Assembly (NCBI GenBank): GCA_021824345.1
Contig: JAKAKW010000011.1
Location: forward strand, 9,074-73,073
Length of the DNA: 64,000 nt
Origin: a bacterium
GTDB taxonomy: Bacteria > Patescibacteriota > Minisyncoccia > Phycocordibacterales > UBA9973
Direction: 5' to 3'
Below the pieces are notes generated by a model, which was not told the origin of the DNA, searched no databases, and was given only the letters and a program-made list of their open reading frames with translations. Position 1 is the stretch's first letter. Every line of letters begins with the position of its first letter. Position numbers and translations under genes: made by a program. Positions 713 to 64,000 of this stretch are shown one piece after another.

Positions 713-1540
713 ATGAAAGCTCTTATAACTATTACGTTTTTTATTTTCCTGATGGCTGAAGTATCAGCTCAGGAAAAGTGGGAAATAATCAATTATGGAA
801 TTCCCATAATTGATTATCCGAATTGTACGGTATCGTACAATTCTGACGGGTCAGTATCGTTTAAGACATATTTGACCACTCCTGATCCACCACTAGATCC
901 AAAGCTGGTGGTTTACTGGAAGTCCACTCTTACAGTTCCAACAACTGTAAGAAACTTAATCTCTGGCAACTTCTCCTTGTTGGGAGATAGTACATTATTG
1001 GGAGTCCAGATCGGGTTTGGAATATCCCATGACGGAGAAAATTGGGCGTTTGTTTTTGGAACAAGCAAAGGAGATACAATGTTCCCCGGACAAAGCACAT
1101 ACTTGACGTGGGATATGACTAATCTCACTAAATATGGCGTCTCGTTGGATAGTGTGAAGGCGATAACAATCATTATCCAGTTGTTGACATCAAAGCCCGA
1201 ATATACTTGGGCGACAGTCAAGATGTGGAATTTGGGATATTCTAGTGTGACTGGAATAAAAAATCCTCACAAGAGGGAGGATTTTCAACTGAGTCAGAAT
1301 TTTCCTAATCCATTCAATCCGACAACTACGATACAATACCAGTTGCCCAAAGCTGGTAATGTAACTATAAGGGTTTATGATATTTTGGGCAATGAAGTAG
1401 CAACACTTGTTAATGGAGAAAAGCCTGCCGGCGTTTACGAAACGAAATTCAACGCTAGCAATCTTTCTTCCGGTCTGTACATCTACCAGCTCAAGGCTGG
1501 AAATTTTATGCAGACAAAAAAGATGATGCTATTGAAATAA
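713..1540 (+). CDS. Secreted protein with a T9SS-type C-terminal sorting domain (Por_Secre_tail-like)
   Basis: N-terminal signal peptide MKALITITFFIFLMAEVSAQE. The C-terminal ~80 aa FQLSQNFPNPFNPTTTIQYQLPKAGNVTIRVYDILGNEVATLVNGEKPAGVYETKFNASNLSSGLYIYQLKAGNFMQTKKMMLLK is a near-textbook T9SS CTD (NPFNP..T.I.F.LP....V.L.VYD..GR.V..L........G.Y....D.S.L.SGVYFY.L.AG.F..TKKM.LLK). RBS aaaggag precedes the ATG. The gene and its flanks are markedly AT-richer than neighbours. Confidence 0.8.
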   Translation: MKALITITFFIFLMAEVSAQEKWEIINYGIPIIDYPNCTVSYNSDGSVSFKTYLTTPDPPLDPKLVVYWKSTLTVPTTVRNLISGNFSLLGDSTLLGVQIGFGISHDGENWAFVFGTSKGDTMFPGQSTYLTWDMTNLTKYGVSLDSVKAITIIIQLLTSKPEYTWATVKMWNLGYSSVTGIKNPHKREDFQLSQNFPNPFNPTTTIQYQLPKAGNVTIRVYDILGNEVATLVNGEKPAGVYETKFNASNLSSGLYIYQLKAGNFMQTKKMMLLK

Positions 1541-9424: not shown

Positions 9425-9444
9425 CCGCCGATTTCCAGACGGGG

Positions 9445-9473
9445 GAAGGGCGGAGGGTTACCCTCCGCCCTTC
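9445..9473. repeat. Family-A palindromic repeat (gaagggcggagggtTaccctccgcccttc, perfect 29-bp palindrome) between convergent pgk and HIT genes; likely bidirectional terminator
   Basis: Read from sequence. The same element recurs at 14454-14482 and 26628-26656. Confidence 0.7.
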
Positions 9474-9493
9474 CTTGCGATGGTTTCGGCCTG

Positions 9494-9904
9494 TCAAAGC
9501 GCTTGGCTGATCTTTTTTGCCACTTCTTTCGCTTCTCCATCGGCATAGTCTCTTCGGCCGTGCCATGGGCCGAAGCCGTCGCTTGAGAGGCGCGGTATCA
9601 CGTGCACATGAGTATGAAATATGACTTGTCCAGCCGCAGAATCGTTGTTCATGGTTACGTTTATTCCGTCCGCCTTGAGCTCTTTTTTGACTGCCATGCT
9701 GATCTTCTTTGCCGCTCGTATCAGCTTGCAAGCAATTTCCTCCGGAGTTTCATATATGTTTTTGAAATGTTCTTTGGGAATGATGAGGGTGTGTCCGATA
9801 TTTACCGGCTTAATGTCCAGAAAAGCAAGAGTATGTTCATCCTCATACACCTTTTCACTGGGTATTTCTCCCTTCACTATTTTACAAAAAATGCAGTCAT
9901 CCAT
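9494..9904 (-). CDS. HIT-family (histidine triad) nucleotide hydrolase
   Basis: Protein MDDCIFCKIVKGEIPSEKVYEDEHTLAFLDIKP...IFHTHVHVIPR contains the HxHxHxx triad. Only the 3' 411 nt of track ORF 9494..10927 is real; the rest overlaps recJ on the other strand. Confidence 0.85.
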   Translation of the reverse strand: MDDCIFCKIVKGEIPSEKVYEDEHTLAFLDIKPVNIGHTLIIPKEHFKNIYETPEEIACKLIRAAKKISMAVKKELKADGINVTMNNDSAAGQVIFHTHVHVIPRLSSDGFGPWHGRRDYADGEAKEVAKKISQAL

Positions 9905-9929
9905 GGGCAAATTATAACACATATTCCAA

Positions 9930-9959
9930 CGTGGGAGGCCTTGCCTCCCACGTTTTTTT
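9930..9959. repeat. Family-B palindromic repeat (cgtgggaggccttgcctcccacg) followed by a T-run, in the divergent HIT / recJ spacer
   Basis: 9-bp stem gtgggaggc / gcctcccac with 3-nt loop, then ttttttt; copies at 25130, 31360, 31422, 37581, 37602. Confidence 0.65.
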
Positions 9960-10018: not shown

Positions 10019-11689
10019 ATGCAAAAGTACGGCGAATTGCTGAGAACCCTGCTTGAAAAAAGGGGAATTATGGATCCGGAACAGGCGGAAATATTCTTGA
10101 ATCCGGATTACGAACGGGATCTCTATGATCCCTTTCTGATGAAAGACATGGAAAAGGCGTGCCGGCGCATTTTTGATGCAATACAGAAGGGCGAAAGAAC
10201 GGTGATTTACGCCGACTATGACTGCGATGGAATGCCCGGAGCGGTCATTCTGGAAGATTTTTTTAAGAAAATCGGGTTTGGAAATTACGAGGTGTACATT
10301 CCCGAGCGAAATTCGGAAGGATACGGATTGAACAAGGAAGCCATAGAAAAATTCGCCGAAAAAGGCGCGAGCCTTCTCCTTGCGGTGGACCTCGGTATTA
10401 CTGCGGTGGAAGAAATAGCCTTTGCCAAAGAAAAAGGCATGAATACCATTATAGTGGACCACCACCTTCCGCCGGAAAAACTTCCCGAGGCTTACGCCAT
10501 TCTGAATCCGAAAATAGACGGCTATCCGGAGAAAATGCTTTGCGCCGCGGGAGTGGCTTTCAAGCTGGTGCAGGGGCTTCTTGCCGCCGCGGAAAAAATT
10601 GACACGTTTCCGAAAATCCCCGCGGGATGGGAAAAATGGCTCATGGACATGGCCGGAATCGCCACTCTTTCTGACATGGTTCCGCTTTTGGGCGAGAATC
10701 GGGCCTTGGCGCATTTCGGAATGAAAGTCTTGCGCAAATCTCCCCGGCCGGGACTGCAGAAGCTTCTGCAGAAAATGAGGGTGGAACAGCGCTTTCTTTC
10801 CCCGGACGATATCGCATTTATGGTCGTGCCGAAAATAAATGCGGCCAGCCGGATGGATGATCCGCGCAGAGCTTACGAGCTTCTTTCCACTGATGATCCG
10901 GCTGAGGCCGGAGCGCTTGCGGACCATCTGACCAAGATAAACGACGAAAGGAAAACAATCGTAACGGGCATAATGCGGGAAGTGAACCGAAATTTTGAGA
11001 AAAGGAACACGGAGGAAAGCCTTCGGGAGGTGATAGTGGTTGGCAATCCGAATTGGAAAATAGGGGTTCTGGGCCTGGTGGCCGGCCGGCTTTCGGAAGC
11101 TTATGAACGGCCGGTTTTCGTATGGGGGGCGGACGAAAACGACTGTATCCGCGGGTCCTGCCGTTCCGACGGCTCGGTGTCAGTGGTGGAACTTATGCAC
11201 GAAACAAAGGAGTATTTTACCGAATTCGGAGGACACGAGCTGGCCGGAGGGTTTGCCGCGGAAAGGACCAAGATTCATTTTTTGGAAGACGCTCTGCTTT
11301 CTTCTTTCGCCAAAGTGAAGAGAGAAAAGCCGGAAGCGGCCGCCGATTATGATTTGAAGCTCGGCTTGTCCGATGTGACTATGAAAAACTGGAAGGAACT
11401 CCAGAAAATGGAACCGTTCGGATCGGGAAATCCGAAGCCGGTGTTCTTATTTGAAAATGTGAAGACTGAAAGCGTGAAAAAATTCGGAAAGAATGGCGGA
11501 GAGCATATTGAGATAACTTTCTCGGACGCCGGCGGACGCAAAATTAAAGCCGTTTCTTTTTTTTCCGGCGAAGATTCGTTCAAGGCGCACGTCTTTCCCG
11601 GCTCGTACGCCAATCTCCTGGCCAGCTTCGACCTGTCCCGATTCCGGGGAAGGGAGGAGCTCCGTCTGCGTATTGAGGATATATATTAG
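10019..11689 (+). CDS. recJ: Single-stranded-DNA-specific exonuclease RecJ (short form)
   Basis: DHH family motifs: VIYADYDCDGM, LLAVDLG, IIVDHHLPP, plus the RecJ-type DHHA1 region. Confidence 0.85.
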   Translation: MQKYGELLRTLLEKRGIMDPEQAEIFLNPDYERDLYDPFLMKDMEKACRRIFDAIQKGERTVIYADYDCDGMPGAVILEDFFKKIGFGNYEVYIPERNSEGYGLNKEAIEKFAEKGASLLLAVDLGITAVEEIAFAKEKGMNTIIVDHHLPPEKLPEAYAILNPKIDGYPEKMLCAAGVAFKLVQGLLAAAEKIDTFPKIPAGWEKWLMDMAGIATLSDMVPLLGENRALAHFGMKVLRKSPRPGLQKLLQKMRVEQRFLSPDDIAFMVVPKINAASRMDDPRRAYELLSTDDPAEAGALADHLTKINDERKTIVTGIMREVNRNFEKRNTEESLREVIVVGNPNWKIGVLGLVAGRLSEAYERPVFVWGADENDCIRGSCRSDGSVSVVELMHETKEYFTEFGGHELAGGFAAERTKIHFLEDALLSSFAKVKREKPEAAADYDLKLGLSDVTMKNWKELQKMEPFGSGNPKPVFLFENVKTESVKKFGKNGGEHIEITFSDAGGRKIKAVSFFSGEDSFKAHVFPGSYANLLASFDLSRFRGREELRLRIEDIY

Positions 11690-14408: not shown

Positions 14409-15353
14409 ATGAATTCCAAAGCACTTATAAAAAATGAAAAGAAACCGCTTGCCGAAGGGCGGAGGGTAACCCTCCGCCCTTCGGCGCCCCAGAAACCCGT
14501 AAAAATTTTCCCCCTATATGCCGTTTTTGCGCTTCTAGCAATGGCTATTTTCCTGTTTTCGCTTGATTTGCGGAATTCTCGCCGAGGGCTAACTTTTGCC
14601 ATGCTTGACGTGGGCCAAGGAGACGCGCTTTTTATAGAATCTCCGACCGGCACTCGGATTCTGGTGGACGCCGGGCCTCCGCGGAAAATATTGGGACAAA
14701 TGGCAAGGGTAATGCCCGCCCTTGACCGCACTTTGGATGCGGTGATAATCACTCATCCGGATGCCGATCATATTTCCGGATTCGCGGACATTTTGGAAAA
14801 TTATAAAGTAAAAGAAATTTTTGATCCCGGCATCGCGGATGATTCCGCGCTGTATCAGAACATAAAAAAAATTGCGGAAGAAAAATCCGTGCAGAACATT
14901 CCCGCCAGGCGAGGCATGCGGTTAAATATTGGCGGCGGCGCGGTTATTGATATTTTGTTTCCCGACGCTGATGTTCGCGACTGGGAAACAAATGCAGGCT
15001 CCGTGGTGGCGCGCCTCTCTTATGGCGATACCTCCATACTGCTTGCCGGCGACTCTCCGATAGATACCGAAAAAATCATTTTGGCGCAAACACAGAGGAC
15101 GCTTCTCAAAAGTACGGCGCTGAAAGTGGGCCATCACGGTTCCAAAAATTCCAGTTCGGCCGAGTTCATTGAAGCGGTCGCGCCCAAGTATGCTCTCATT
15201 TCCGCGGGCAAAGAAAACAGATACGGCCATCCGGATCCCGCGGTACTGGACATCTTTGAAAAGTCCGGGATACAAGCGTTCCGCACGGACGAACACGGAA
15301 CCATTCTCATGCGCTCCGACGGCAAGACTGAAGCCTTTTCTTTTTATAAATAG
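14409..15353 (+). CDS. comEC: ComEC C-terminal metallo-beta-lactamase domain protein (separate ORF)
   Basis: TM helix then MLDVGQGDALFIESPTGTRILVDAGPP...IITHPDADHISG...GHHGSKNSSS: ComEC-type MBL domain. The start is uncertain: the family-A palindrome lies inside the first 25 codons, so the true start is probably downstream, e.g. the ATG at 14541. Confidence 0.7.
   Translation: MNSKALIKNEKKPLAEGRRVTLRPSAPQKPVKIFPLYAVFALLAMAIFLFSLDLRNSRRGLTFAMLDVGQGDALFIESPTGTRILVDAGPPRKILGQMARVMPALDRTLDAVIITHPDADHISGFADILENYKVKEIFDPGIADDSALYQNIKKIAEEKSVQNIPARRGMRLNIGGGAVIDILFPDADVRDWETNAGSVVARLSYGDTSILLAGDSPIDTEKIILAQTQRTLLKSTALKVGHHGSKNSSSAEFIEAVAPKYALISAGKENRYGHPDPAVLDIFEKSGIQAFRTDEHGTILMRSDGKTEAFSFYK
14454..14482. 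repeat. Family-A palindromic repeat copy (gaagggcggagggtAaccctccgcccttc)
   Basis: Identical to 9445-9473 apart from the central base; lies 45 nt inside the track ORF starting at 14409. Confidence 0.7.
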
Positions 15354-21926: not shown

Positions 21927-22346
21927 CTAAGGAAAATAGGGATCTTTATTCTTCAGCACCAATTTTTTTGCTTCTTCAGCTAGGCGTTTGAATTTTTCTT
22001 CATCCTCATCCGTGAGCGAGTTTAATTTTTCAAATATTTCATTGAGCTTAGCTGTTCTTTTGGGATACTTTTCGATTCCGTTTTTCATTCTCTTATATTC
22101 AACAGCATCATCCCCGAACTTATTTTTTACTTCTCCCAACAATTTTTCCATTGTAGGAAAAAGATTTTCTTTTATTTCTTTATTAACCTCTGCAAATTTC
22201 CCATTCTGTTTTCTTAATTCCCTTACAAAATATGTGAGTGTAATTAAACATTCCTCAAAACCCAGGTTGTCAGGCACAGTCGTTAGATCTTCCTTCCCAG
22301 CATTCGTTTTTTCCATCTCGTTTCCATTCATATCAATATTGTACAT
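21927..22346 (-). CDS. Hypothetical K/E-rich coiled-coil protein (antisense to flanking genes)
   Basis: 139-aa ORF with no recognisable domain; AT-richer than flanks. Confidence 0.4.
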   Translation of the reverse strand: MYNIDMNGNEMEKTNAGKEDLTTVPDNLGFEECLITLTYFVRELRKQNGKFAEVNKEIKENLFPTMEKLLGEVKNKFGDDAVEYKRMKNGIEKYPKRTAKLNEIFEKLNSLTDEDEEKFKRLAEEAKKLVLKNKDPYFP

Positions 22347-22398: not shown

Positions 22399-25300
22399 AT
22401 GGCTTCCGGTGAAGAATCTAAAAAATCCGAATCTGCTCGGCGCGAAGAGCGGATTTTGGAGTTCTGGAAGGAGAATAAAATTTTTGAAAAAACTCTGGGA
22501 AAGCCGTCCCCCAAGGGGGAATTCGTTTTCTACGAAGGTCCGCCTACGGCCAATGGCAAACCTCACATAGGGCACTTTGAGGCGCGTTCTTTCAAGGATG
22601 CCGTTCCCAGGTACAAGACCATGCGCGGATACCATGTGCGTCGGAAAGGCGGATGGGACACCCACGGCCTGCCTGTGGAGCTTGCGGTGGAGAAAAAACT
22701 CGGGCTTAGTTCCAAAAAGGGGATAGAGGAATACGGAATTGCCAAGTTCAACGAGCAATGCAAGGAAAGCGTATGGGAATATGTGAACCTATGGGAAAAG
22801 TTCACCGAGCGCGTGGGATACTGGGTGGATCAGAAGGATGCCTACGTCACTTACCATAACGATTACATTGAATCTCTTTGGAATATCGTAAAAAAAATAG
22901 ATGAACAAGAACTGCTTTACAAGGATTACAAAGTGGTTCCGTGGTGTCCGCGCTGCGGGACGGCCCTTTCCTCGCACGAATTGGCGCAGGGATATGAGGA
23001 TGTGAAGGATCTGTCGGTGTATGTGAAATTCCGCGTGAAATCTTCGCCTGACGCTTTTGCGAAGGTCCTCGGTTCCCCTCGCACAAAGCTTGCTCCTTCG
23101 GAGCTGGAAGCTCGGCCAGACCATTCGCAAAAGCATTCAGTCGAGGATTTCACATATATTCTGGCATGGACCACTACCCCCTGGACTTTGCCGGGCAACG
23201 TTGCTTTAGCGGTAGGAAAAGATATTGATTACACCGCTTTGCGCGTAAAAGGGGTTTCCGAATTGTATATTCTCGCAAGCGATAGGGTAAAGAGTGTCTT
23301 TGAAGGGCAGGAAATTGAAATTGTGCATGACAACATAAAAGGATCAGATCTTGTCGGCCTGGAATACGAACCCTTGTATCCGTATTTCGCGAACACTCTT
23401 CCTGAGAGCGAAAAGTCCAAACTTCCAAAAGCATACAAGGTTTACGAAGCGGATTTTGTGACAACCGTTGACGGCACGGGCGTGGTGCATACCGCCGTGA
23501 TGTACGGACAAGACGACTTCGTGCTGGGCACCGCTATCGGTTTGCCCAAGCACCATCTCGTGGGTCTGGACGGGAAATTCCTGGCCGGCACTGATTTTCT
23601 TGAAGGAAGATTCGTGCGAGACGAAGATGTGGCAGTGGACATTATCAAAGACCTTGCGCACCGGAACCTTTTGCTAAAGAAAGAAAAGTACGAACACTCA
23701 TATCCTTTCTGCTGGCGCTGCCATACCGCGCTCATATATTACGCGCGGGACTCGTGGTACATAAAAGTTTCAGATCCGCGGATTAAGGAAAAGATGATTT
23801 CTGAGAATGAGAAGATAAACTGGGAGCCGGCGCACATTCGGGACGGGCGTTTCGGAGAATGGCTGCGCGATATCAAGGACTGGGCGATTTCCCGCGAGCG
23901 GTACTGGGGAACTCCGCTTCCGGTGTGGACATGCGAGAAATGCAACCAGAGGATTACCATCGGAAGCATTGAGGAACTGAAAAAGCATACGAAGAAATCC
24001 GGCAATCGGTACTTCTTTATGCGGCATGGAGAAGCAGAGAGCAATGTTAAGGGTATGGTGGCTTGCAGAGTGGAGGATAACGATAATTTAATCGAGGCCG
24101 GGAAACAACAAGTATTGTCTTCGGCAAAACAACTAAAAGAAAAGAATATTGATCTTATTTTCTCCTCGGATATTTTGAGGACGAAAGAGACAGCTGAAAT
24201 TGTTAAAAAAGAAATTAGTACTGAAAAAGAAATAATTTTTGACAAGCGCCTGCGCGAGTGGAACGTAGGAAAATTTGACGGAAAAACATGGCACGAATAT
24301 AAAAAATTTGCGCGCCAACACGATGATTGGTACAGTTTTATCCCTGAGGGAGGCGAATCATTCAAAGATATAAAGATTAGAGTTTTTGATTTCATTTACG
24401 AATTGGAGAATAAATACCAAGGGAAAAATATCTTGATCGTCACTCACCAGGCTCCGATTGTAGTTATTCTTAAGGGTTTAGATAAACTTAATGATGAAGA
24501 TACAAAGGCAGGTGATAGCGATGTGAACTTAAGATTCAAGGGAGGAGAGTTTAAAGAGATAGATTTTACCTTACTTCCCCACAACAAAAACTACGAGCTG
24601 GATTTGCACCGGCCATACATAGACGAGGTTCCGCTGGTCTGCGATTGCGGAGGAAAACTTTCTCGTACACCGGAGGTTATGGACGTCTGGTTTGATTCCG
24701 GTTCCATGCCGTTTGCCCAGGATCATTATCCTTTTGAGAACAAAGACTGGATTGACGATCACGGATATCCGGCTGATTTCATATCGGAGGCCATAGATCA
24801 GACTCGCGGATGGTTCTATACCCTGCACGCCGTGGGAGCGCTTGTGGGGAAGGGCAGGGCATACAAAAATGTAATCTGTCTCGGACACCTGATGGATGCC
24901 GAGGGAAAGAAAATGTCAAAACATATCGGCAACGTAGTGGACCCCTGGGAGATGATAGAGAAATACGGGGCGGATACTTTGCGATTATGGATGTACTCCA
25001 TAAACCAGCCGGGCGAGTCCAAGAATTTTGATGAAAAAACGGTGGTGCTTCTCCACCGGCAAATGTTCGGTCTGCTTTACAATGTGCTTTCTTTCTACGA
25101 GCTTTACCGCGACAAAGAGCTTGAGACGATGGGAGGCAAGGCCTCCCACCGGCCTGCCTCGGAAAATATTCTGGATAAGTGGATAATTACGCGATTAAAC
25201 GAGCTGGAGATTCTGTGCACGGAAAATCTTGAGAAATATAAATTATTGGAACCCGTGCGGGCCATGCGCGATTTCATCGACGATCTGTCCACTTGGTATT

Positions 25301-26016
25301 TGCGCCGATCCAGGGAGCGCATTAAGGACGGGGACAAGGATGCCAAGCGCACTTTGTACTTTGTGTTGAAAAATCTTGCCAAGCTTCTGGCCCCGTTCGC
25401 TCCTTTTGCCACCGAGGATATATGGCAAAAGCTTAAAAGCGATGAGGACCCTGCAAGCGTTCATTTGTCCGAGTGGCCGTACAAGGACCAATCCCTTTTG
25501 CAAAAGCTTTTCGGAAAGAAAGAAAAAGTGGATTACTCAGTGCTGGAAAATATGCGCCGAGCCAGGCAGATTGTGACAATGGGCTTGGAAGCTCGGCAGA
25601 AAGCGGGCATAAAGGTGCGCCAACCGCTCGGACTTTTGAGGATAAAGGATCGGAATCTTTCATCGGAGTATGAAGAGCTCATCAAGGACGAGCTCAATGT
25701 TAAAGAAATTGCCAAAGATGCCGGCCTAGAAGGAGAAGTGTTGCTTAATACTGAAATTACTCCTGAACTTAAAGAAGAAGGCGACTATCGCGAACTGGTT
25801 CGCGCTATTCAGGATATGCGCAAAGAGGCGGGGCTCTTACCGAGCGACATGGTAACGCTTCTTTTGGATACTGATGAATCTGGCGAAAAGCTGGCCAAAA
25901 AATTTGAAGAAGATCTGAAGAAAACTGTTAGCGCCGAAAAAATTGAATTCACGGAAAGCGACGGTCCGGAAATCAAAATCGGCAATTCAGCGTTTAAGAT
26001 AAAAATTCAAAAATAG
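22399..26016 (+). CDS. ileS: Isoleucine--tRNA ligase (type 2) carrying three insertions
   Basis: HIGH (PTANGKPHIGH), CP1 editing (WTTTPWTLPGN), KMSKS (KMSKHIGN). 1205 aa is about 150-200 aa longer than typical type-2 IleS. Insertions at 23062-23128, 24001-24570 and 25130-25148 are annotated separately. Confidence 0.9.
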   Translation: MASGEESKKSESARREERILEFWKENKIFEKTLGKPSPKGEFVFYEGPPTANGKPHIGHFEARSFKDAVPRYKTMRGYHVRRKGGWDTHGLPVELAVEKKLGLSSKKGIEEYGIAKFNEQCKESVWEYVNLWEKFTERVGYWVDQKDAYVTYHNDYIESLWNIVKKIDEQELLYKDYKVVPWCPRCGTALSSHELAQGYEDVKDLSVYVKFRVKSSPDAFAKVLGSPRTKLAPSELEARPDHSQKHSVEDFTYILAWTTTPWTLPGNVALAVGKDIDYTALRVKGVSELYILASDRVKSVFEGQEIEIVHDNIKGSDLVGLEYEPLYPYFANTLPESEKSKLPKAYKVYEADFVTTVDGTGVVHTAVMYGQDDFVLGTAIGLPKHHLVGLDGKFLAGTDFLEGRFVRDEDVAVDIIKDLAHRNLLLKKEKYEHSYPFCWRCHTALIYYARDSWYIKVSDPRIKEKMISENEKINWEPAHIRDGRFGEWLRDIKDWAISRERYWGTPLPVWTCEKCNQRITIGSIEELKKHTKKSGNRYFFMRHGEAESNVKGMVACRVEDNDNLIEAGKQQVLSSAKQLKEKNIDLIFSSDILRTKETAEIVKKEISTEKEIIFDKRLREWNVGKFDGKTWHEYKKFARQHDDWYSFIPEGGESFKDIKIRVFDFIYELENKYQGKNILIVTHQAPIVVILKGLDKLNDEDTKAGDSDVNLRFKGGEFKEIDFTLLPHNKNYELDLHRPYIDEVPLVCDCGGKLSRTPEVMDVWFDSGSMPFAQDHYPFENKDWIDDHGYPADFISEAIDQTRGWFYTLHAVGALVGKGRAYKNVICLGHLMDAEGKKMSKHIGNVVDPWEMIEKYGADTLRLWMYSINQPGESKNFDEKTVVLLHRQMFGLLYNVLSFYELYRDKELETMGGKASHRPASENILDKWIITRLNELEILCTENLEKYKLLEPVRAMRDFIDDLSTWYLRRSRERIKDGDKDAKRTLYFVLKNLAKLLAPFAPFATEDIWQKLKSDEDPASVHLSEWPYKDQSLLQKLFGKKEKVDYSVLENMRRARQIVTMGLEARQKAGIKVRQPLGLLRIKDRNLSSEYEELIKDELNVKEIAKDAGLEGEVLLNTEITPELKEEGDYRELVRAIQDMRKEAGLLPSDMVTLLLDTDESGEKLAKKFEEDLKKTVSAEKIEFTESDGPEIKIGNSAFKIKIQK
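23062..23128 (+). repeat. About 66-nt repeat element inserted in-frame in ileS (encodes roughly AKVLGSPRTKLAPSELEARPDHSQ); second copy at 36154-36215
   Basis: aggtcctcggttcccctcgc...agctggaagctcggccagaccat has a 23-nt identical core and about 75-80% identity over 70 nt with the tatD-rpsF spacer copy. From a remembered T. thermophilus IleS alignment, this IleS has about 28 extra residues between VKFRVK and WTTTPWTLPGN. Confidence 0.65.
24001..24570 (+). other. Inserted histidine-phosphatase (phosphoglycerate-mutase-like) domain within ileS
   Basis: FFMRHGEAESN (RHG catalytic motif), IFSSDILRTKETAEIV, DKRLREWNVG, IPEGGES, IVTHQAPI match the PhoE/GpmB-type histidine phosphatase fold. The insert lies between the conserved PVWTCEKC...ELKKH and DLHRPYIDEV...VMDVWFDSG IleS segments and is AT-richer than the flanking ileS sequence. 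Confidence 0.7.
25130..25148. repeat. Family-B palindrome copy (tgggaggcaaggcctccca) in-frame inside ileS, encoding GGKASH
   Basis: Exact match to the intergenic family-B element (31422-31440); translates as MGGKASH within a variable IleS linker. Confidence 0.6.
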
Positions 26017-26627: not shown

Positions 26628-26656
26628 CCAGGGCGGAGGGTTACCCTCCGCCCTAG
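26628..26656. repeat. Family-A palindromic repeat copy (core gggcggagggttaccctccgccc)
   Basis: Same core as 9445 and 14454; outer arms slightly degenerate. Sits after the NUDIX gene and before a TATAAT-containing promoter region for the next gene. Confidence 0.65.
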
Positions 26657-26717: not shown

Positions 26718-27362
26718 ATGAAAATCACAAAGCTTGGGCATTGTTGCCTCATTATTGAAGAAAACGGAAAGAGGATTATGACTGATCCGGGTTCTTTTAC
26801 CGCGGAAGAGCAGAAGAAAGAGAAAGATATCGATGTCATTCTTTTTACCCACGAGCACGGCGACCACTACCACCTTGAATCGCTGAAGGAAATTCTGAAG
26901 AACAGTCCGAATGCGAAAATAATCACAAATGCCGGCGTGGGGAAGCTTCTGGACGAAGCCGGCATAAAGTATGAAATCATGCCGGACAAAACTTCCAAGG
27001 AAGTTTTGTCCGGCATAGAACTGGAAGCGCATGACTGCAAGCATGGGGAAATTTTTGAAGAATACGGCCAGGTGCCGAACACCGGCTTCTTTATCGGCAA
27101 GCGCCTATTTTATCCTGGAGACTCATATTACAATCCCGGCAAGCCAGTGGAAATCCTTGCGCTTCCCGTGGCCGGCCCGTGGGCGAAGGTGGCGGACTTT
27201 ATGCGCTATGCATTGGATGTAAAACCGAAAGTATGTTGTCCGGTGCATGATGGCATGCTGGGAAAATATTCCGGGCTTGCGTATTGGGTGCCAGAAAAAG
27301 TGCTTCCTGAGAATGGGATTTCTTTCAAGATTCTTGAAAAAGGCAAAACGGAGGAATTTTAG
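26718..27362 (+). CDS. MBL-fold metal-dependent hydrolase
   Basis: HEHGDHYH (HxHxDH) motif and UPF0173-like layout. Confidence 0.8.
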   Translation: MKITKLGHCCLIIEENGKRIMTDPGSFTAEEQKKEKDIDVILFTHEHGDHYHLESLKEILKNSPNAKIITNAGVGKLLDEAGIKYEIMPDKTSKEVLSGIELEAHDCKHGEIFEEYGQVPNTGFFIGKRLFYPGDSYYNPGKPVEILALPVAGPWAKVADFMRYALDVKPKVCCPVHDGMLGKYSGLAYWVPEKVLPENGISFKILEKGKTEEF

Positions 27363-29983: not shown

Positions 29984-31327
29984 ATGAGCAAAGAAAAAAA
30001 ATCGGAAGAGAACAATTTGATGGAAAAAATCGTGTCGCTCTCTAAGCGGCGGGGGTTCATTTTCCAAGGATCGGAAATATACGGAGGCTTGGCCGGCACC
30101 TGGGATTACGGCCCCTTGGGACTGGCCCTGAAGAAAAATATAGAAAGCCTGTGGTGGAACCGCTTTGTGGATTCGCGGGAGGATATGTACGGCATCGACT
30201 CCGCGATACTGATGAATCCGCGAGTGTGGGAGGCGAGCGGGCATGTGTCCGGTTTTTCCGATCCTCTGGTGCAGTGTGAAAAATGCAAGCGCCGTTTCCG
30301 GGCGGATCATTTGGAAAACGCTTCAAAATGCCCGGATTGCGGAGGAAAACTCGGGGAACCCAGGCAATTCAATATGATGTTCAGAACCTCCGTCGGTTCG
30401 GTGGACGGTTCGGATATGGCGGTATATTTGCGTCCGGAAACGGCGCAGGGAATGTTCGTGAATTTCAAAAATATTATTGATTCATATCATCCCAGAATGC
30501 CTTTCGGCATAGCCCAAATCGGCCGGGCTTTTCGGAACGAAATCGCTCCCCGCGATTTTATCTTCCGGGTAAGAGAGTTGGAAATCATGGAATTTGAATA
30601 TTTTGTTCGGGAAGATGAGTGGAAGGGCATTTTTGAGTATTGGCGCAAAGAAATGCTTTCCTGGTTTTTATCGCTCGGTTTTGAAGAAAGCGACATAAAG
30701 GAAGTGGAAATACCGGAGGAAGATCGAGCGCACTATTCCAAGCGCACCGTAGATTTTCATTTCAATTTCCCCCATAAATTTGATGAAATTGCCGGCCTCG
30801 CTTATCGCACCGGTTTCGATCTGGAGAACCACATCAGGGAGAGCGGATCGGATTTGTCGTATTTGGATCCGGTGTCCGGCGAAAGATTCGTCCCTCACGC
30901 GCTTGAGCCCACTTTCGGCCTCGGCCGGCATCTTTTGGCCGTTCTATCCAAGGCTTATACCGAAGACAATCTCGGCGGAGAAACAAGAGTTTTTCTAAAA
31001 TTCCCCGCAAGGCTGGCACCGATCAAAGCGGCCGTGTTTCCTTTGCTCAAAAACAAGCCGGAATTGGTAAAAAAAGCGAGAGATATATATGAGACCCTGA
31101 AGAAAGAAGTGCCTCAGACTGAATTTGACGACAACGGCAACATCGGCAAGCGCTATCGCCGGCAGGATGAAATCGGCACTCCCTGGTGCATTGTGGCGGA
31201 TTTCGACACCTTGGAAGACGACACGGTTACAGTTCGCGACAGGGATACCGGAAAACAGGAGAGGATGAAAATTGCGGAACTGTCCGGATATATTAAAGAA
31301 AAGCTGGCGGCAGGAAGTTTGCGATAG
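29984..31327 (+). CDS. glyQS: Glycine--tRNA ligase (alpha2 dimeric type)
   Basis: RRGFIFQGSEIYGGLAGTWDYGPLG..., class II motifs, insertion domain with the C..C pair. Confidence 0.9.
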   Translation: MSKEKKSEENNLMEKIVSLSKRRGFIFQGSEIYGGLAGTWDYGPLGLALKKNIESLWWNRFVDSREDMYGIDSAILMNPRVWEASGHVSGFSDPLVQCEKCKRRFRADHLENASKCPDCGGKLGEPRQFNMMFRTSVGSVDGSDMAVYLRPETAQGMFVNFKNIIDSYHPRMPFGIAQIGRAFRNEIAPRDFIFRVRELEIMEFEYFVREDEWKGIFEYWRKEMLSWFLSLGFEESDIKEVEIPEEDRAHYSKRTVDFHFNFPHKFDEIAGLAYRTGFDLENHIRESGSDLSYLDPVSGERFVPHALEPTFGLGRHLLAVLSKAYTEDNLGGETRVFLKFPARLAPIKAAVFPLLKNKPELVKKARDIYETLKKEVPQTEFDDNGNIGKRYRRQDEIGTPWCIVADFDTLEDDTVTVRDRDTGKQERMKIAELSGYIKEKLAAGSLR

Positions 31328-31352
31328 GAAAACAGCGGGTGCACGGCAGCAG

Positions 31353-31446
31353 CGGGAGAGTGGGAGGCCTTGCCTCCCACTTTTTAATATGTGTCCTGCC
31401 AGGCCACGACTTCTAGGAGTGGGAGGCAAGGCCTCCCACTCTCCCG
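31353..31446. repeat. Pair of family-B palindromes in inverted orientation with extended 28-bp arms, flanking a 37-nt spacer
   Basis: cgggagagtgggaggccttgcctcccac (31353-80) ... agtgggaggcaaggcctcccactctcccg (31418-46); MITE-like or nested-hairpin architecture between glyQS and the M16 peptidase gene. Confidence 0.65.
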
Positions 31447-31487
31447 CCGGGCTTCCTACAAGCTTTTGATTATGGTATGTTTTATGG

Positions 31488-36127: not shown

Positions 36128-36241
36128 GCCGGGGAACGCACAGGAGTTCTGCTAGGTCCTCGTTCTCCTCGCTTTAGGTCCGCTTCTACGAAGCTGGAAG
36201 CTCGGCCAGACCATCGCAGAGCTCCTGTGCGTTCCCCGGCC
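36128..36241. repeat. MITE/RPE-like element: 26-bp inverted repeats flanking a 62-nt core shared with ileS
   Basis: ggccggggaacgcacaggagttctgc (36128-53) pairs with gcagagctcctgtgcgttccccggcc (36216-41) with one mismatch. The core 36154-36215 matches ileS 23062-23128. Confidence 0.65.
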
Positions 36242-37556: not shown

Positions 37557-37578
37557 CGAATTTTATAAGTTTTAATGA

Positions 37579-37630
37579 AGGTGGGAGGCCTTGCCTCCCT
37601 AAAGGAGGCAAGGCCTCCCACCTTTTCTTT
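37579..37630 (+). terminator. Terminator of the rpsF-ssb-rpsR operon built from two abutting family-B palindromes
   Basis: ggtgggaggccttgcctccc taaa ggaggcaaggcctcccacc followed by ttttctttat. Confidence 0.7.
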
Positions 37631-38213: not shown

Positions 38214-40415
38214 TTAACCGCCCGCCTGTTCCGAGAACTTTTTTCGGATATCCTTCAAAATCTGGCCCGCGATTTTCGGATTTTCTTTCAAAAATGTCCG
38301 AGTGGAATCGTAGCCCCGTCCGAGCTTCACTTCCTCTTCGCCATCCGGCTTGCCCGCCTGCCCGGTTGGCTTGTATGAATACGAACTGCCGGACTTTTCC
38401 AAGATCTTAAACTTTTCTCCGAGGGCGATGAGTTCGCCTTCTTTGGAGATGCCTTCGTTATAAATGATGTCGAATTCCGTCTGCTTGAACGGCGCGGCTA
38501 CTTTGTTTTTTACCACTTTCACTCGTGTTCGCGATCCCACCACTTCTTCTCCTTTCTTTATTTGGGCGATGCGCCGGATGTCCATTCGAACACTTGTGTA
38601 AAACTTAAGAGCCTTGCCTCCGGGCGTTGTTTCCGGCGAGTTGCTGACCAGGCAGCCATCCGCAAAATAATTGTGGTTATCAGCGACGCTTATATCAAAT
38701 CTTTGCCGGCTTATCCTCTGGCCATCATGGTACGGCGTACGGGTTCTGATTTCTTTTATTATCATCGGGCGCAATATCTGGCTTTGCTTTGATTGTTGAG
38801 GATCCGTCTGATGATAGCGCCCGCGGTATTTTTCAGGAAGCTTGTATTCCATGGACTTAGGAACGAAAGGGGATATCAGTTCAAAGAATTTATCCGACTC
38901 TGCGGCACTAAAACCCAGCACTTGATATTCTCCGCATTTCCTCCATTTGGGCGCAATATCATAGCGGGCGAATATCCGGTTGATTCTGTCAACGCTCTCC
39001 GGCTGATTTCCGAAGGCGTTGGCGTACAGCCCGGCTCTCGGCCGCCGCGCGTACCATTTTCCTTTCCATTCTGAAAGTCCGGTCTGCATTGTTCCGTCTC
39101 CGCAGTACCATAAAGCTATCATGCGAGGAGTAATTTGCTCCACCAAAAACTCCGGCACGATCTTTTTTTGTTGCGGATAAAACAGTCCGTGTAGGTCTCC
39201 GATGCGCAGAAGATGTTTGGTTTCCACAATGGCATTTCCCCTAGAATTTTCCATTACGACATTGCTGGCGATATCGCCCAATTCCTCTGCGAGCCATGAC
39301 ACGTATTGGGATTGTTCTGCTCCATGTTCCTCCCTGAAATATGCGGTTTGTTCGTTAAATTTCTTAATGTTTCCATCTCCCAGCAAAGAGCCGATGATAA
39401 TCTCCTCTTGTTCCGGGGAGAGGTCTATATTATTTATATTCACTGATATCTCATCTCCGGCTTTCAGTTCCTTGGCCTTTTTCCAGCCAGCCGGCGTATA
39501 TATTTTGTGGTCGGGAGTGCAGGAAAATCCTCTTCGTCCGTTTCCCGTATGGTTTTGAACAAAAAACTGCAAGAATGAATCCGTTTCTCCGTTTATGTGC
39601 CAGTCAGTTATGAACTTTGCTTCTACGCATTTCTTTTCAAAATTATAAGAAAGCACCTTCACTTTTTTAGTTTGATTGACAATTTTCCCGATTTTTTCTT
39701 TCGTTCCGTCGGCCAGCAGCACTTTCGTATCGTAGGAAAAACATCCGAACATCACCCCGATCTGCATTCTGATTTGGTTTATGAAAATCACTACGGTCTT
39801 GCTTCGCGCCACGATTGCCGTGAGCTTGCGCAGAGCTTGGGACATAAGCCGGGCCTGCTTGCCCACATGATATGCTCCCATATCTCCCTCGATTTCATCT
39901 TTTGGAGTAAGGGCTGCCACCGAGTCCACCACCACCACGTCAATCTTGCCGGTGCGCACAAGCGATTCCACTATTTCCAGCGCCTGTTCTCCGGTATCCG
40001 GCTGGGAAATCAGGAGTTCGTTTATGTTGACGCCGAGACGTTTGGAATATTCCGGATCCATGGCATGCTCCGCGTCAATGTACGCGCATATTCCGCCTTT
40101 CTTTTGCGCCTCCGCCACTATATGCAGGGACAGGGTAGTCTTCCCGCTGGACTCCGGGCCGAAAATTTCGATAATCCTTCCGCGGGGAATGCCTCCGACC
40201 CCCAAGGCCATATCCAGGCCGATTGAGCCCGTGGGTATTACGTTCACATCCACCTTCGGGGTATCCCCGAATTTCATAATAGTGCCTTCGCCAAACTTGG
40301 TCTGCAGGGCTTTCAGGGTGTCTTCCAATCCTGAAGCGTTTCCGCCTTTTCCGGCGGAACCCTTTTTTTCTTCACTTATTTCCTTCTGGGGGTCGGTTTT
40401 TGTTTTTTTAGGCAT
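38214..40415 (-). CDS. recA: Recombinase RecA interrupted by a 368-aa intein
   Basis: N-extein has Walker [10 protein letters not shown] and ...[11 protein letters not shown]-extein resumes [23 protein letters not shown].... Between them is a Cys1...VSN intein with LAGLIDADG motifs. Confidence 0.9.
38640..39743 (-). mobile_element. RecA intein with LAGLIDADG homing-endonuclease domain
   Basis: Starts [14 protein letters not shown] (block A, Cys1), ends [11 protein letters not shown]|S (terminal Asn, +1 Ser). Internal [11 protein letters not shown] and [18 protein letters not shown] motifs. 1104 nt = 368 codons, in frame, at the MFG|SPETT site. Confidence 0.85.
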
Positions 40416-48951: not shown

Positions 48952-48974
48952 CAGTGTTTTGACGCCATTTTCAA

Positions 48975-49880
48975 ATGAAAAAAATTGTGATAACCGGAGG
49001 GGCAGGCTTTATCGGATCCCACATTGCGGATGCGCTGATTGAGAAAGGATATGAAGTCCATGTGGTGGACAATCTTTCCGCCGGGAAGAAAGAGAATGTG
49101 AATTCCAAAGCCATTTTGCACGTCGCGGATATACGCAATGGCATGGAAATGCTTAAGATATTTGAGGGAGCGGAATATGTTTTTCACGAAGCCGCTTTTC
49201 CGAGGGTGCAATATTCCATTGAAAATCCGGTGGAAACGCATGACATAAACGTAAACGGAACTTTGAATGTGCTGGAAGCGGCGCGGCTGTCCGGAGCAAA
49301 AAAAGTGATCTTCGCTTCCTCCTGCGCGGTATATGGCAATCCGACAAAATTACCAGTGGATGAAACTGGCGAGATTTCTCCCATGTCTCCCTATGCGGTG
49401 CACAAATGGATGGGGGAAAAGTATTGCCGAATGTATTCGGATCTGTACGGCCTTAAAACTGTCTGTCTCAGGTACTTTAACGTATACGGTCCGCGTATGG
49501 ATCCGGAGGGAGCTTATCCAATGGCGATCGGTAATTTCATCAAGATGCGTAAAATAGGCAAGCCTCTTCCCATAACCGGCGACGGAACGCAGACCAGAGA
49601 TTTTGTGAATGTAAAAGATGTGGTAAAGGCCAATCTTCTTGCGTTGGAATCAGACAAGATTGAAAAAGGAGAGGTGGTGAATATAGGCAGCGGCGTAAAA
49701 ACTTCCGTCAATCGCCTCGCCGAGCTTATCGGTGGACCTGTGGAGCGCATTTCTGCGCGACATGAACCGCACGATGTGCAATCTGATGTTTCATTGGCTG
49801 AAAAACTTTTAAGCTGGAAAGCGTCGGTAGTTATCGAGGAAGGACTTGCGGAATTAAAAAAAGAAAATAGTATAGCTTGA
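48975..49880 (+). CDS. NAD-dependent sugar-nucleotide epimerase (GalE-like extended SDR)
   Basis: ITGGAGFIGSH Rossmann motif, SS.AVYG, YAVHK (YxxxK). Confidence 0.8.
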   Translation: MKKIVITGGAGFIGSHIADALIEKGYEVHVVDNLSAGKKENVNSKAILHVADIRNGMEMLKIFEGAEYVFHEAAFPRVQYSIENPVETHDINVNGTLNVLEAARLSGAKKVIFASSCAVYGNPTKLPVDETGEISPMSPYAVHKWMGEKYCRMYSDLYGLKTVCLRYFNVYGPRMDPEGAYPMAIGNFIKMRKIGKPLPITGDGTQTRDFVNVKDVVKANLLALESDKIEKGEVVNIGSGVKTSVNRLAELIGGPVERISARHEPHDVQSDVSLAEKLLSWKASVVIEEGLAELKKENSIA

Positions 49881-49884
49881 GCGA

Positions 49885-50829: not shown

Positions 50830-50983
50830 GTCGGTCTTTATACTAACACCCGTTGTATTTAGTGGCAATATGTCTTAGTATAATTAAATTAATTGGGCGG
50901 AAAATGCAGGCGCGCAGAAAATGGTATAATATGAATGATCTAAAGGCAATTTTCCGAAAGTAAAAATAATAACATAAATCAAT

Positions 50984-55015: not shown

Positions 55016-55090
55016 ATCTTTCATTTTAAGGATATTTATCAATTCTGATTTGTTGTTTTTATTCTTAATATAGCTTAGTATTATTTACAT

Positions 55091-55930: not shown

Positions 55931-55939
55931 ATTTCCTAT

Positions 55940-62233: not shown

Positions 62234-62291
62234 GAGAAAATATTATCATGTATTTACCTTATATGCATTCGTAGGATATAATTGACGGGTT

Positions 62292-63850: not shown

Positions 63851-64000
63851 ATTATTTTTGATTTATCAATATTTTTGAAGATCTTTATATTGTAATAATA
63901 ATCGTTTGAAAAATCTCCATATTCATCTATATGTTTGTATATATCCCTGACGATATCCTCTATGCCGTATCTTGGGGCATATTCAAGGACTGATTCGGCT
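63851..64000 (-). CDS. Partial CDS (C-terminal 49 aa; stop TGA overlaps the DUF218 start as ATGA), unknown function
   Basis: Reverse-strand frame ...AESVLEYAPRYGIEDIVRDIYKHIDEYGDFSNDYYYNIKIFKNIDKSKII* runs in from the window edge. Confidence 0.35.

Follow-up and report, generated by a model that had tools for sequence, protein, structure and literature searches.

The present locus raises the question of how a GC-rich hairpin that also occurs between genes came to lie, in frame, within a gene for isoleucyl-tRNA synthetase (IleS). The hairpin, the 19-mer TGGGAGGCAAGGCCTCCCA / tgggaggcaaggcctccca, is located at 25130-25148 (+) within ileS in the window, by which we mean the whole stretch of 64,000 nucleotides that was analyzed. 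The features concerned are as follows.

22399..26016, + strand: ileS, encoding a type-2-like isoleucyl-tRNA synthetase of 1205 aa with an inserted histidine-phosphatase domain (Pfam and structure matches).
25108..25167, + strand: codons of the variable linker of IleS, RDKELETMGGKASHRPASEN, between the helix that ends in FYELY and helix 1 (NILDKW...) of the anticodon-binding domain.
25129..25149, + strand: in-frame 21-nt unit of the family-B repeat, ATGGGAGGCAAGGCCTCCCAC, with its stem at 25130-25137 / 25141-25148 and its loop at 25138-25140, coding for M911-G-G-K-A-S-H917 of IleS.

The sequence and a check of the reading frame confirmed that the hairpin lies at this position and codes for GGKASH, and the linker context quoted in the original prediction, ..RDKELETMGGKASHRPASEN.., was correct. 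The codons across the hairpin are ATG GGA GGC AAG GCC TCC CAC, which are translated as M911 G G K A S H917. The hairpin had been described as a perfect hairpin and a GC-rich palindrome. The hairpin itself is perfect, with an 8-bp stem (TGGGAGGC/GCCTCCCA); however, a 3-nt loop (AAG) intervenes, and the palindrome is therefore not perfect. As RNA, its stem is entirely Watson-Crick paired and the predicted fold has an energy of -17.4 kcal/mol. The ileS stop codon is 870 nt away. A T-run was absent 3' of the hairpin, where the next bases are CCGGCCTGCC, and a terminator scan gave no flag there; an internal terminator was ruled out on these grounds. A search of the window against Rfam gave no matches at the gathering threshold, and a tRNA search of the window found none.

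The gene was assigned to ileS from its Pfam domains (tRNA-synt_1, Anticodon_1, and DUF5915) and from matches to solved IleRS structures, the best of which was 1ILE (E 8e-61). The same 1205-aa protein is present, without any difference, on 12 contigs. In an alignment of orthologs, the linker was 20 aa long in the present IleS versus a mode of 15 aa (69 of the 120 nearest orthologs listed), which agrees with the earlier view that the hairpin lies in a variable linker. The sequence GGKASH was seen in none of the other IleS orthologs in this alignment (120 nearest listed). Its retention in relatives as protein, but not as a DNA palindrome, had been named as an observation that would point to a coincidental match; since no relative conserves GGKASH, this objection fails. 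The linker aligns with the Pro-rich loop of Thermus thermophilus IleRS (1ILE). In an AlphaFold2 model, the segment MGGKASHRPASE is a coil joining two long helices, with pLDDT <50 at GKAS. According to this model, the hairpin is in a disordered loop between the catalytic core and the anticodon-binding domain. The reading frame is kept across the insert, and the protein sequence is conserved on both sides. Judged from the sequence, the ileS hairpin looks like an insertion. No target-site duplication or clean excision boundary was visible at the hairpin. Since the linker gained 5 aa, not 7, a simple 21-nt insertion requires either the loss of 6 nt or linker variation besides.

The common unit of family B has 21 nt, (G)TGGGAGGCAAGGCCTCCCAC, and thus corresponds to exactly seven codons. 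None of its six frames contains a stop codon, and the ileS copy agrees with the unit at 20 of the 21 positions. Our census of family B covered 83 kb, namely, the window and two 10-kb flanks, and gave six loci (eight units), or approximately one locus per 14 kb. Five of these six loci are intergenic. Beyond ileS, exact copies of the 19-mer are present at 9932-9950 (-), 31361-31379 (-), and 31420-31438 (+), all of them intergenic, and the claimed identity between the ileS hairpin and an intergenic repeat was thereby borne out; the position previously given for the latter, 31422-31440, was 2 nt off and is corrected here to 31420-31438. Near-copies were found at 37582-37600 (-, one mismatch) and 37602-37620 (+, two mismatches), and the left flank holds another copy (L097, 6070-6092). 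A search of the 64-kb window with the 19-mer, allowing up to three mismatches, yielded 10 strand-wise matches versus 0.04 expected, and none of 100 shuffles reached 10. The original prediction had regarded a chance origin of a 19/19 hairpin as unlikely, and these numbers support that judgement. The principal intergenic copies are listed below.

9928..9954, no strand assigned: single family-B unit, the extended stem of which has 12 bp (AACGTGGGAGGCCTTGCCTCCCACGTT) and leads into T7; it occupies the spacer separating the divergently oriented HIT gene (9494..9904, -) and recJ (10019..); DNA fold z -8.2.
31352..31447, no strand assigned: inverted family-B pair (REPIN-like) with 29-nt arms, GCGGGAGAGTGGGAGGCCTTGCCTCCCAC and its complement, and a 38-nt spacer; fold -46.1 kcal/mol, z -9.0.
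37578..37624, no strand assigned: tight inverted family-B pair that separates the S18 gene from efp; its stem measures 21 bp and leads into TTTTCTTT; z -10.2.

The pair at 31352..31447 is located between proS (29984..31327) and an M16 peptidase gene (31488..); we infer the name proS for this class II aminoacyl-tRNA synthetase gene from its domains (tRNA-synt_2b/HGTP_anticodon). Family-B units are 21 nt long, or 29 nt in extended copies, with a 3-nt loop and a stem of 8-12 bp that was perfectly Watson-Crick paired in every copy seen. The 9-mer half-site GCCTCCCAC and its complement were confined to hairpins, save one stray GTGGGAGGC at 30226. Since half-sites occur essentially only within hairpins, the whole hairpin is the repeat unit. 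A DNA uptake sequence (DUS/USS-type) was rejected because the half-sites do not stand alone. When a collection of genomes from 185,579 species, which does not include the genome of the window, was scanned with the 19-mer, only 10 singletons were obtained, in unrelated bacteria; we estimate that this is about chance level. The 19-mer had no match in viral contigs and was absent from the loci of the sister species. Family B is a lineage-specific REP-like palindromic repeat, and the ileS copy is an in-frame member of it.

Some of the intergenic copies combine the GC-rich hairpin with a T-run, namely, 9928-9954 (T7), the first unit of the proS-M16 pair at 31359-31381 (T5), and 37578-37624, the last of which was the best terminator-like site in the terminator scan. 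Several 3' ends thus make use of one and the same sequence. Three copies are not positioned as terminators: the one in ileS, the second unit at 31419-31439, and that at 9928-9954, which lies in a divergent promoter region. Paired Neisseria uptake sequences are dispersed terminator-like repeats. The intergenic family-B copies resemble such repeats in their hairpin and T-run, whereas the ileS copy does not, and half-sites were not found alone, unlike an uptake motif. SPRITE of Streptococcus pneumoniae, named in PMC10969869, is another dispersed terminator-like repeat.

The linker of IleS carries hairpins in other genomes also. Strong hairpins were found at this site in L002 (the sister species), L015, L016, L038, L045, L099, and L100. 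In five lineages beyond the sister species, the sequences of these hairpins are unrelated, and the linker is therefore a recurrent insertion site. Among linkers of at least 25 aa, five of six had a strong hairpin (codon-shuffle z <= -3.3); among shorter linkers, the number was 1 of 76, and this case (L080) was borderline (z -3.0, stem 5 bp). Basal linkers had stems of at most 6 bp and no fold excess. The hairpin in the L015 linker has two more copies in the same locus. One family of L099 has three in-frame copies, two in argS and one in ileS, for which three other genomes have empty sites, and a single element occupies two ileS sites in L100. A clade-wide core, GGCCTTGCC, was rejected; this motif joins only L016 and L099 (the AAGGCCTTGCCTT family) and represents ordinary G-K-A coding elsewhere.

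The sister species, the IleS of which is 76% identical to that of the window, has a hairpin family, GGAAGC-NTT-GCTTCC, that is one compensated pair apart from the window family, GGAGGC-CTT-GCCTCC. This family occupies the proS spacer orthologous to that of the window, the IleS linker (in a degenerate form), and recJ (in frame). The sister proS-M16 spacer is only approximately 50 nt long and has one related hairpin, GGAAGCATTGCTTCC. In the sister recJ, three in-frame units form a 16-aa insertion, GSKASLSASKRKQDFP, for which the window recJ represents the empty site. The reading frame is the same in ileS and recJ (GGA-RGC-AAG-GCY-TCC, coding for G[GS]KAS). In the IleS linker, the counterpart of the window unit in the alignment is the right-hand unit of L002, and both species have similar codons downstream (CAC..GCC TYG..AAT ATT). 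The left arm of the sister linker hairpin overlaps the native RDKEL codons. By a hand count, agreement with the window family is 15/15 positions for the window copy and 9/15 for the L002 copy; the latter agrees with the L002 family at 11/15.

The original prediction counted the hairpin, a 66-nt element, and the phosphatase domain as three independent foreign-looking insertions in ileS. The hairpin is insertion-like, and the 66-nt element has an intergenic paralog (23072-23124 vs 36162-36214, 79% over 53 nt). The claim as a whole was only partly upheld. The histidine-phosphatase domain (PF00300) occurs in the same architecture in all 120 IleS homologs listed (62-76% identical), and it is therefore an old clade-wide fusion and not a peculiar foreign insertion. 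The 66-nt element is also present in the sister species and in further orthologs; it is located at a beta-turn of which 45 of the 120 orthologs listed keep the modal short form, and most have an expanded one. Accordingly, this element is older than the hairpin and provides no independent evidence on this genome. Nor is ileS to be singled out: another gene of the same genome contains a family-A hairpin in frame, and in-frame hairpins are present in recJ, argS, and comEC of relatives. We also noted a perfect palindrome with a 17-bp stem at 26979-27016 of the window, in an MBL-fold gene, where it replaces a non-palindromic orthologous stretch. Since the net change is only +1 aa, a simple insertion does not explain it.

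We consider that the ileS hairpin is probably a young passenger, copied in frame from a REP-like repeat specific to the lineage (family B, (G)TGGGAGGC-AAG-GCCTCCCAC). In the Paceibacteria-type (CPR) host genome, this repeat would be dispersed, mostly between genes, as singles or inverted pairs, and some intergenic copies may double as intrinsic-terminator-like structures. One 21-nt, stop-free unit would have been copied into ileS at the disordered loop, either by a RAYT-like Y1 (HUH) transposase, for which single-stranded hairpins would be the substrate, or by recombination or template switching between hairpins. Translation of the insert would yield a short hydrophilic segment, GGKAS(H), tolerated by IleS. 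Since the ileS copy has no U-tract, it should not terminate transcription, and the ribosome would read through it. The recurrence of hairpins at the linker is most readily attributed to selection acting as a filter, such that essential genes keep only in-frame, stop-free insertions in permissive loops. We infer that the insert is near-neutral. Instead of mere tolerance, a function or a preference in targeting may also lie behind the recurrence at the linker.

Because both sister species have a related hairpin at the linker with similar downstream codons, the element may be ancestral there and may have been kept paralog-like by gene conversion, a history other than a recent insertion. Such an orthologous hairpin would owe its identity with the copies of its own genome to concerted evolution (gene conversion or replacement by the active variant), which we regard as unlikely, although several of the above observations are in its favor: families one compensated pair apart are found in both species at the IleS linker and again at the proS-M16 spacer, each an orthologous position, each linker copy is closer to the paralogs of its own genome than to its ortholog, and the window unit and the right-hand L002 unit share an alignment and similar downstream codons. 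However, only two genomes with this degree of IleS identity are compared, and the data fit equally well with related elements having been inserted independently at a site that permits them. No conversion tracts or intermediates were seen in these two genomes. Furthermore, the L002 copy is degenerate and the window copy is pristine, so that homogenization, if real, has not been uniform. Selection on the hairpin as a cis-acting element in ileS appears improbable to us. It may act as an mRNA structure (slowing the ribosome for co-translational folding, blocking an exonuclease, or serving as a processing site) or as a protein-bound DNA site common to family-B hairpins. Hairpins of different sequences, present in at least seven other loci at precisely the same linker, a related one in both sister species, a stable and perfectly paired stem, and a site at a domain boundary are what selection may be expected to leave. 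Nevertheless, the hairpin is missing in most orthologs, including the 69 of the 120 listed that have a 15-aa linker, and basal linkers show no fold excess. Its sequence is not specific to ileS, being that of a repeat of a generic, dispersed kind. The same families are present in other ileS loops and in recJ, argS, and comEC, which speaks for tolerance and not for a role tied to this site. The hairpin is not followed by a T-run and has no match in Rfam.

We also considered whether the hairpin arose in place, through fold-back (quasi-palindrome) template switching, with its identity to family B resulting from convergence or from templating by an ectopic copy. The MBL-fold palindrome of the same genome, with its net gain of 1 aa, and the overlap between the sister hairpin and the RDKEL codons are consistent with such a process. 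However, local fold-back by itself cannot produce a match of 20/21 to a dispersed unit, with 0.04 expected, the linker exceeds the mode by 5 aa, and switching to an ectopic template is in effect the copying mechanism of our main explanation. An origin in place is, therefore, very unlikely. The only point for a chance resemblance or an assembly artifact is the short length of the element. With 10 strand-wise matches versus 0.04 expected, an identical protein on 12 contigs, and an in-frame insert flanked by conserved protein sequence, we regard this possibility as negligible. The evidence as a whole is best accommodated by a passenger copy of family B.

REPs within genes are known, including different REPs at approximately the same recB site in two Xanthomonas species (Di Nocera et al. 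2013, PMC3733652). In the passages of that paper concerned, REPs are short GC-rich palindromes (20-40 bp), mostly intergenic and often in inverted pairs that fold into longer structures, with occasional copies that lie wholly within ORFs and are translated. Family B similarly consists of a short stem-loop unit that is dispersed, multi-copy, and mostly extragenic (83 kb), with inverted pairs at 31352-31447 and 37578-37624. In contrast to REPs with the GTAG tag, the RAYT cleavage signal, no GTAG/CTAC flanks any of the eight family-B units, which start with (G)TGGG and end with CCCAC. Family B also differs from the described REP superfamilies in having neither a GTAG nor a CGTC tag and in its shorter core (15-21 nt). 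The same passages (PMC3733652) name Proteobacteria, Cyanobacteria, Chloroflexi, and PVC, whereas the host of family B is of the CPR/Paceibacteria type. Among the papers listed in a limited literature search, none mentioned RAYT or REPIN.

Rickettsia palindromic elements (RPEs) are described as selfish elements that occur in frame in unrelated housekeeping genes at fold-compatible positions (Ogata et al. 2000, as reported in passages of PMC10969869). The ileS copy resembles them as an in-frame palindromic repeat in a housekeeping gene of a small reduced genome, with seven codons in a low-confidence coil. However, RPEs are approximately 100-150 bp long, encode a conserved peptide of 30-50 aa, have a CGTC tag (PMC3733652), and are restricted to Rickettsia, whereas the family-B unit has 21 nt (7 aa) and a separate family is found in each lineage. 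CGTC/GACG was not consistently found at the ends of family-B units; GACG precedes the ileS copy only. The coding palindromes of Nematomorpha mitochondria are likewise perfect inverted repeats translated within essential genes, but are described in PMC6649704, in the part concerned, as up to 284 bp long, mitochondrial, and coding for conserved protein with both arms, in contrast to a short dispersed unit in a loop.

Pfam scans of 30 window ORFs outside the L001 gene-table stretch, together with gene tables, revealed no transposase (Y1, DDE, or serine) in the 83 kb of the window and flanks, and no RAYT (IS200/IS605-like Y1) gene among the genes of this part of the genome. In L099, a gene fragment has a weak match to PF01797 (Y1_Tnp), and a hairpin, ACTTGGGAGCCGAGCTCCCAAGT, begins 3 nt past its stop codon. 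A tblastn search with this fragment against 1.39 Mb of DNA found nothing else, and a database search with it returned one uninformative match of 106 aa.

The message of the ileS hairpin by itself is modest; it is a tolerated passenger repeat and indicates no new function of IleS. In CPR genomes, which are very small and streamlined, short selfish hairpins colonize even those essential genes that are most highly conserved, and they provide a concrete source, at the DNA level, for some of the odd peptide insertions in CPR proteins. Alignment and annotation pipelines may misread inserts derived from such hairpins. The linker and two other loops of IleS are natural insertion-tolerant sites, which is useful for protein engineering. 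Moreover, the sister genomes represent a tractable case for the likeness of hairpins within a genome, with variants at orthologous sites and an empty site in recJ. We tentatively speculate, while regarding it as rather doubtful, that Paceibacteria-type CPR genomes harbor undescribed, untagged, very short palindromic mobile repeats that are still active, are concerted within each genome, and enter repeatedly in frame into the same few loops (three IleS sites, ArgRS, RecJ, and ComEC). The ileS linker copy would then be no one-off, but an old site periodically overwritten by the current variant, and the mobilizer might be a divergent Y1 transposase similar to that of L099 beside a family-B-like hairpin. 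If this is true, untagged palindromic repeats are a general source of lineage-specific peptide insertions in CPR proteins.

The 19-mer TGGGAGGCAAGGCCTCCCA was read at 25130-25148 (+ strand) and forms a perfect 8-bp stem with a 3-nt loop. Its host is a 1205-aa ORF (22399..26016), which was identified as IleS by Pfam (tRNA-synt_1, Anticodon_1, and DUF5915) and also matched solved IleRS structures (1ILE, E 8e-61). The codons ATG GGA GGC AAG GCC TCC CAC encode M911-GGKASH917. Sequence, stem, ORF, and codons bear out the original prediction of a hairpin within ileS that is read in frame as GGKASH. The identical IleS protein is present on 12 contigs, among which DAICBP010000002.1 (MAG GCA_027428375.1) was fetched, and the nearest homologs carry the names Paceibacterota, Nomurabacteria, or Minisyncoccia, which are CPR bacteria.

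The ileS copy agrees at 20/21 positions with the 21-nt unit (G)TGGGAGGCAAGGCCTCCCAC common to all copies of family B, and its length is exactly seven codons; stop codons occur in none of the six frames of the unit. Further exact 19-mers were located at 9932-9950, 31361-31379, and 31420-31438, with near-copies at 37582-37600 and 37602-37620. A search of the window with up to 3 mismatches gave 10 strand-wise matches vs. 0.04 expected. The predicted intergenic twin at 31422-31440 exists as an exact copy, but lies 2 nt away, at 31420-31438. The copies outside ileS, all intergenic, are as follows:

9928-9954: single hairpin followed by T7, in the divergent HIT-recJ spacer
31352-31447: inverted pair (arms 29 nt, spacer 38 nt), 3' of a class II aaRS gene, probably proS (-46.1 kcal/mol, z -9)
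37578-37624: tight inverted pair with a 21-bp stem, 3' of the S18 gene (z -10)
L097 (left flank) 6070-6092: further copy with the extended arm ...CCCACTCTCCCGC

A genome-wide census with the fraction inside CDSs had been proposed; over the 83 kb of window and flanks, it gave 6 loci (8 units), with 1 locus in a CDS. No copy lay in the right flank, which is a polysaccharide gene cluster of low GC. The half-site GCCTCCCAC is confined to hairpins, save one stray copy; therefore, the hairpin is the repeat unit, and an uptake-sequence-type motif was rejected. In a terminator scan of the window, the 37578-37624 pair ranked first, and the ileS copy, with CCGGCCTGCC 3' of it, went unflagged. Rfam and tRNA searches of the window gave no match. 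The 19-mer was not found in viral contigs or the sister species; ten singletons in unrelated bacteria within a species-representative genome collection are, by our estimate, about the chance level.

The linker, bounded by FYELY and N[IV]LDxW, was compared among the 120 nearest orthologs (62-76% identity). It measures 15 aa in 69/120, 16-18 aa in 26/120, and at least 19 aa in 24/120, the longest class comprising at least five peptide types; that of the window IleS is 20 aa. Its description as variable agrees with the alignment, and none of the other proteins contained GGKASH. After the removal of MGGKASH, the remaining RDKELE-T-RPASE-N resembles the common RDKxLE-KNN-RPKSE-N, but is 2 aa shorter, and so a clean 21-nt insertion requires an accompanying small loss. 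When a 270-aa fragment was modelled with AlphaFold2 (mean pLDDT 68.6), residues 134-145 (GGKASHRPASEN) formed a coil between helices 101-133 and 146-167, with pLDDT <50 precisely at GKAS. In T. thermophilus IleRS, the corresponding point is a Pro-rich loop.

The closest ortholog (P0002, 76% identity) belongs to a sister species represented by loci L002-L004 (GCA_027428435.1, GCA_027428395.1, and an ENA assembly). Its linker is 26 aa long, and the DNA folds as a 14-bp-stem hairpin, GAAAGCCTTTCTT...AAGAAAGGCTTTC. The sister-species family, GGAAGC-[C/A]TT-GCTTCC, is one compensated pair apart from GGAGGC-CTT-GCCTCC of the window, and occurs at these sites:

proS-M16 spacer: orthologous position to the window pair 31352-31447
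IleS-linker hairpin: both arms, in degenerate form
recJ, L002 1266-1330: three units in frame

The recJ units constitute a 16-aa insertion, GSKASLSASKRKQDFP, which is missing from the window RecJ; window recJ (10019..11689) is thus an empty site. They share the reading frame GGA-RGC-AAG-GCY-TCC (G[GS]KAS) with the window ileS. The window copy is pristine (15/15 to its own family), while the L002 linker copy is degenerate (11/15 to its own family and 9/15 to that of the window). The right-hand unit of L002 is the one to which the window unit aligns, and the codons downstream are similar; therefore, the ancestor of both species may already have had an element at this site.

We compared ileS DNA from 80 metagenomic relatives and several named orthologs. 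Strong hairpins were present in 5/6 linkers of at least 25 aa (L002, L015, L016, L038, and L045; stems 7-14 bp, codon-shuffle z -3.3 to -5.6), and the 76 shorter linkers yielded a single borderline hairpin (L080, z -3.0, stem 5 bp). Loci L099 and L100 contributed two additional linker hairpins. These sequences are mutually unrelated and, therefore, represent independent events. The L015 hairpin has two more copies (22163-22187 and 22562-22586) on either side of a small DUF559 gene, which encodes a Vsr-like endonuclease. The window has no gene between the orthologs of its neighbors, the tRNA-synt_1g synthetase and TatD, and so the L015 arrangement may be a mobile cassette. L099 has three in-frame members of the family AAAGCYGGGYTTT...AAARCCCRGCTTT, two within argS and one within a third loop of ileS; they encode KLGF..KPSF and KPGF..KPGF, and the ArgRS sites are empty in the window, L002, and L016. 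The L099 comEC contains an inverted pair, AAGGCCTTGCCTT, of the same family as the L016 IleS-linker hairpin. The L099 hairpins lie as follows:

L099 8348-8384 and 9659-9695: argS
L099 13060-13096: ileS
L099 1577-1612: comEC

In L100, two sites of ileS share one ~30-nt core. Perfect hairpins with a stem of at least 9 bp were ~16-fold denser in intergenic than intragenic DNA when 665 kb of loci were scanned, and 48 were CDS-internal.

The hairpin had been counted as one of three independent foreign-looking insertions in ileS. The hairpin and a 66-nt element hold as repeat-derived insertions, of different ages; the phosphatase domain does not. This His_Phos_1 domain (PF00300; residues 539-699, window 24013-24495) is present in 120/120 listed IleS homologs, and is therefore an ancient fusion and the clade-wide architecture of Paceibacteria-type IleS. 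Some homologs (P0052 and P0113) additionally bear an HD domain (PF01966). The 66-nt element contains a 53-nt direct repeat (23072-23124 vs. 36162-36214, 79% identity); the former copy is in frame in ileS and encodes GSPRTKLAPSELEARPDH, and the latter lies in the spacer separating the TatD and S6 genes. The element sits at the beta-turn VKFKxK-GQ-xNTYILAWTT; of the 120 listed orthologs, 45 keep the modal short form of this turn and most have an expanded one. SPDAFxxVLGS...PDHSxKH peptides occupy the turn in the sister species and also in several orthologs from outside it. Two hairpins with 12-bp stems are present at this turn in L002 (10673-10700 and 10707-10737).

Other features were noted in the window. 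A perfect palindrome, ATGCCGGACAAAACTTCCAAGGAAGTTTTGTCCGGCAT (26979-27016; 17-bp stem, 4-nt loop), lies within an MBL-fold hydrolase ORF (26718..27362) and encodes MPDKTSKEVLSG. The L015 and L018 orthologs have a same-length non-palindromic stretch (net +1 aa), and the window holds no second copy; a palindrome formed in place, or a replacement, appears to fit better than a simple insertion. Family A, GGGCGGAGGGT[T/A]ACCCTCCGCCC, has these copies, none followed by a T-run:

Window: 9444-9474, 14451-14485, and 26630-26654
L097: 6142-6164 and 8219-8241

The 14451-14485 copy is read in frame as AEGRRVTLRPSA, within the N-terminal tail encoded by a Lactamase_B/ComEC-C-like ORF (14409..15353); this peptide is missing from three orthologs. 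In the left flank, one family-A copy lies on either side of the H+-pyrophosphatase gene. An intein containing a LAGLIDADG homing endonuclease splits the recA gene (38214-40415, -), with Pfam matches to RecA, Intein_splicing, LAGLIDADG_2, and RecA_C. AT-rich perfect hairpins (785-817, 820-843, 928-952, and 1260-1285) cluster in a low-GC stretch (785-1285) of ORF 713..1540, which has a C-terminal match to the Por_Secre_tail sorting domain; at 293-326 is a GC-rich hairpin with a 15-bp stem. The low-GC (0.39-0.45) polysaccharide/O-antigen-type cluster (48000-64000 and right-flank L098 1-9900) has many epimerase, glycosyltransferase, and Wzy_C genes. It contains no family A or B copies and, thus, may be a horizontally acquired island.

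Di Nocera et al. (PMC3733652) described REPs that lie within genes and are translated, and even two Xanthomonas species with different REPs at about one recB position; PMC10969869 gives a summary of Rickettsia RPEs inserted in frame. Family B is similarly a short palindrome that forms inverted pairs and is mostly extragenic with occasional intragenic copies. It lacks the GTAG or CGTC tag and is shorter, and no description of such repeats was found for its host phylum; among the papers listed by the literature search, none mentioned RAYT or REPIN. Therefore, we did not assign it to GTAG-REPs or RPEs. In how it works, family B resembles an intragenic REP, of which it is a variant.

The ileS hairpin is best explained as a passenger, copied from a selfish or structural repeat of REP-like type. 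It probably survives because it is in frame, is stop-free, and lies in a tolerant loop. An ancestral linker site homogenised by gene conversion agrees with the alignment of the window and L002 linker units and their similar later codons, but is unlikely. Selection for an RNA or DNA structure at the boundary between domains is more doubtful still. Least probable is an in-place origin through fold-back template switching, which is suggested by the replacement by the 38-nt palindrome and the overlap of the left arm of the L002 linker hairpin with native codons.

We concluded that ileS tolerates this hairpin as an in-frame copy of a REP-like, lineage-specific repeat, at a site where insertions recur. 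Pfam scans and gene tables revealed no transposase genes in the 83 kb. In L099 (GCA_027347985.1), within 1-263, a C-terminal gene fragment weakly matches Y1_Tnp (PF01797); the hairpin ACTTGGGAGCCGAGCTCCCAAGT(AG), with a stem resembling family B, begins 3 nt past its stop codon. A tblastn query with the fragment over 1.39 Mb of loci matched nothing else, and a database search yielded one 106-aa hit of little information. This may be a REPtron-like arrangement and is a candidate pointer to the copying mechanism. The finding would be of greater interest if a mobilisation system that is active and so far undescribed were shown to underlie the clade-wide pattern and the homogenisation within genomes.
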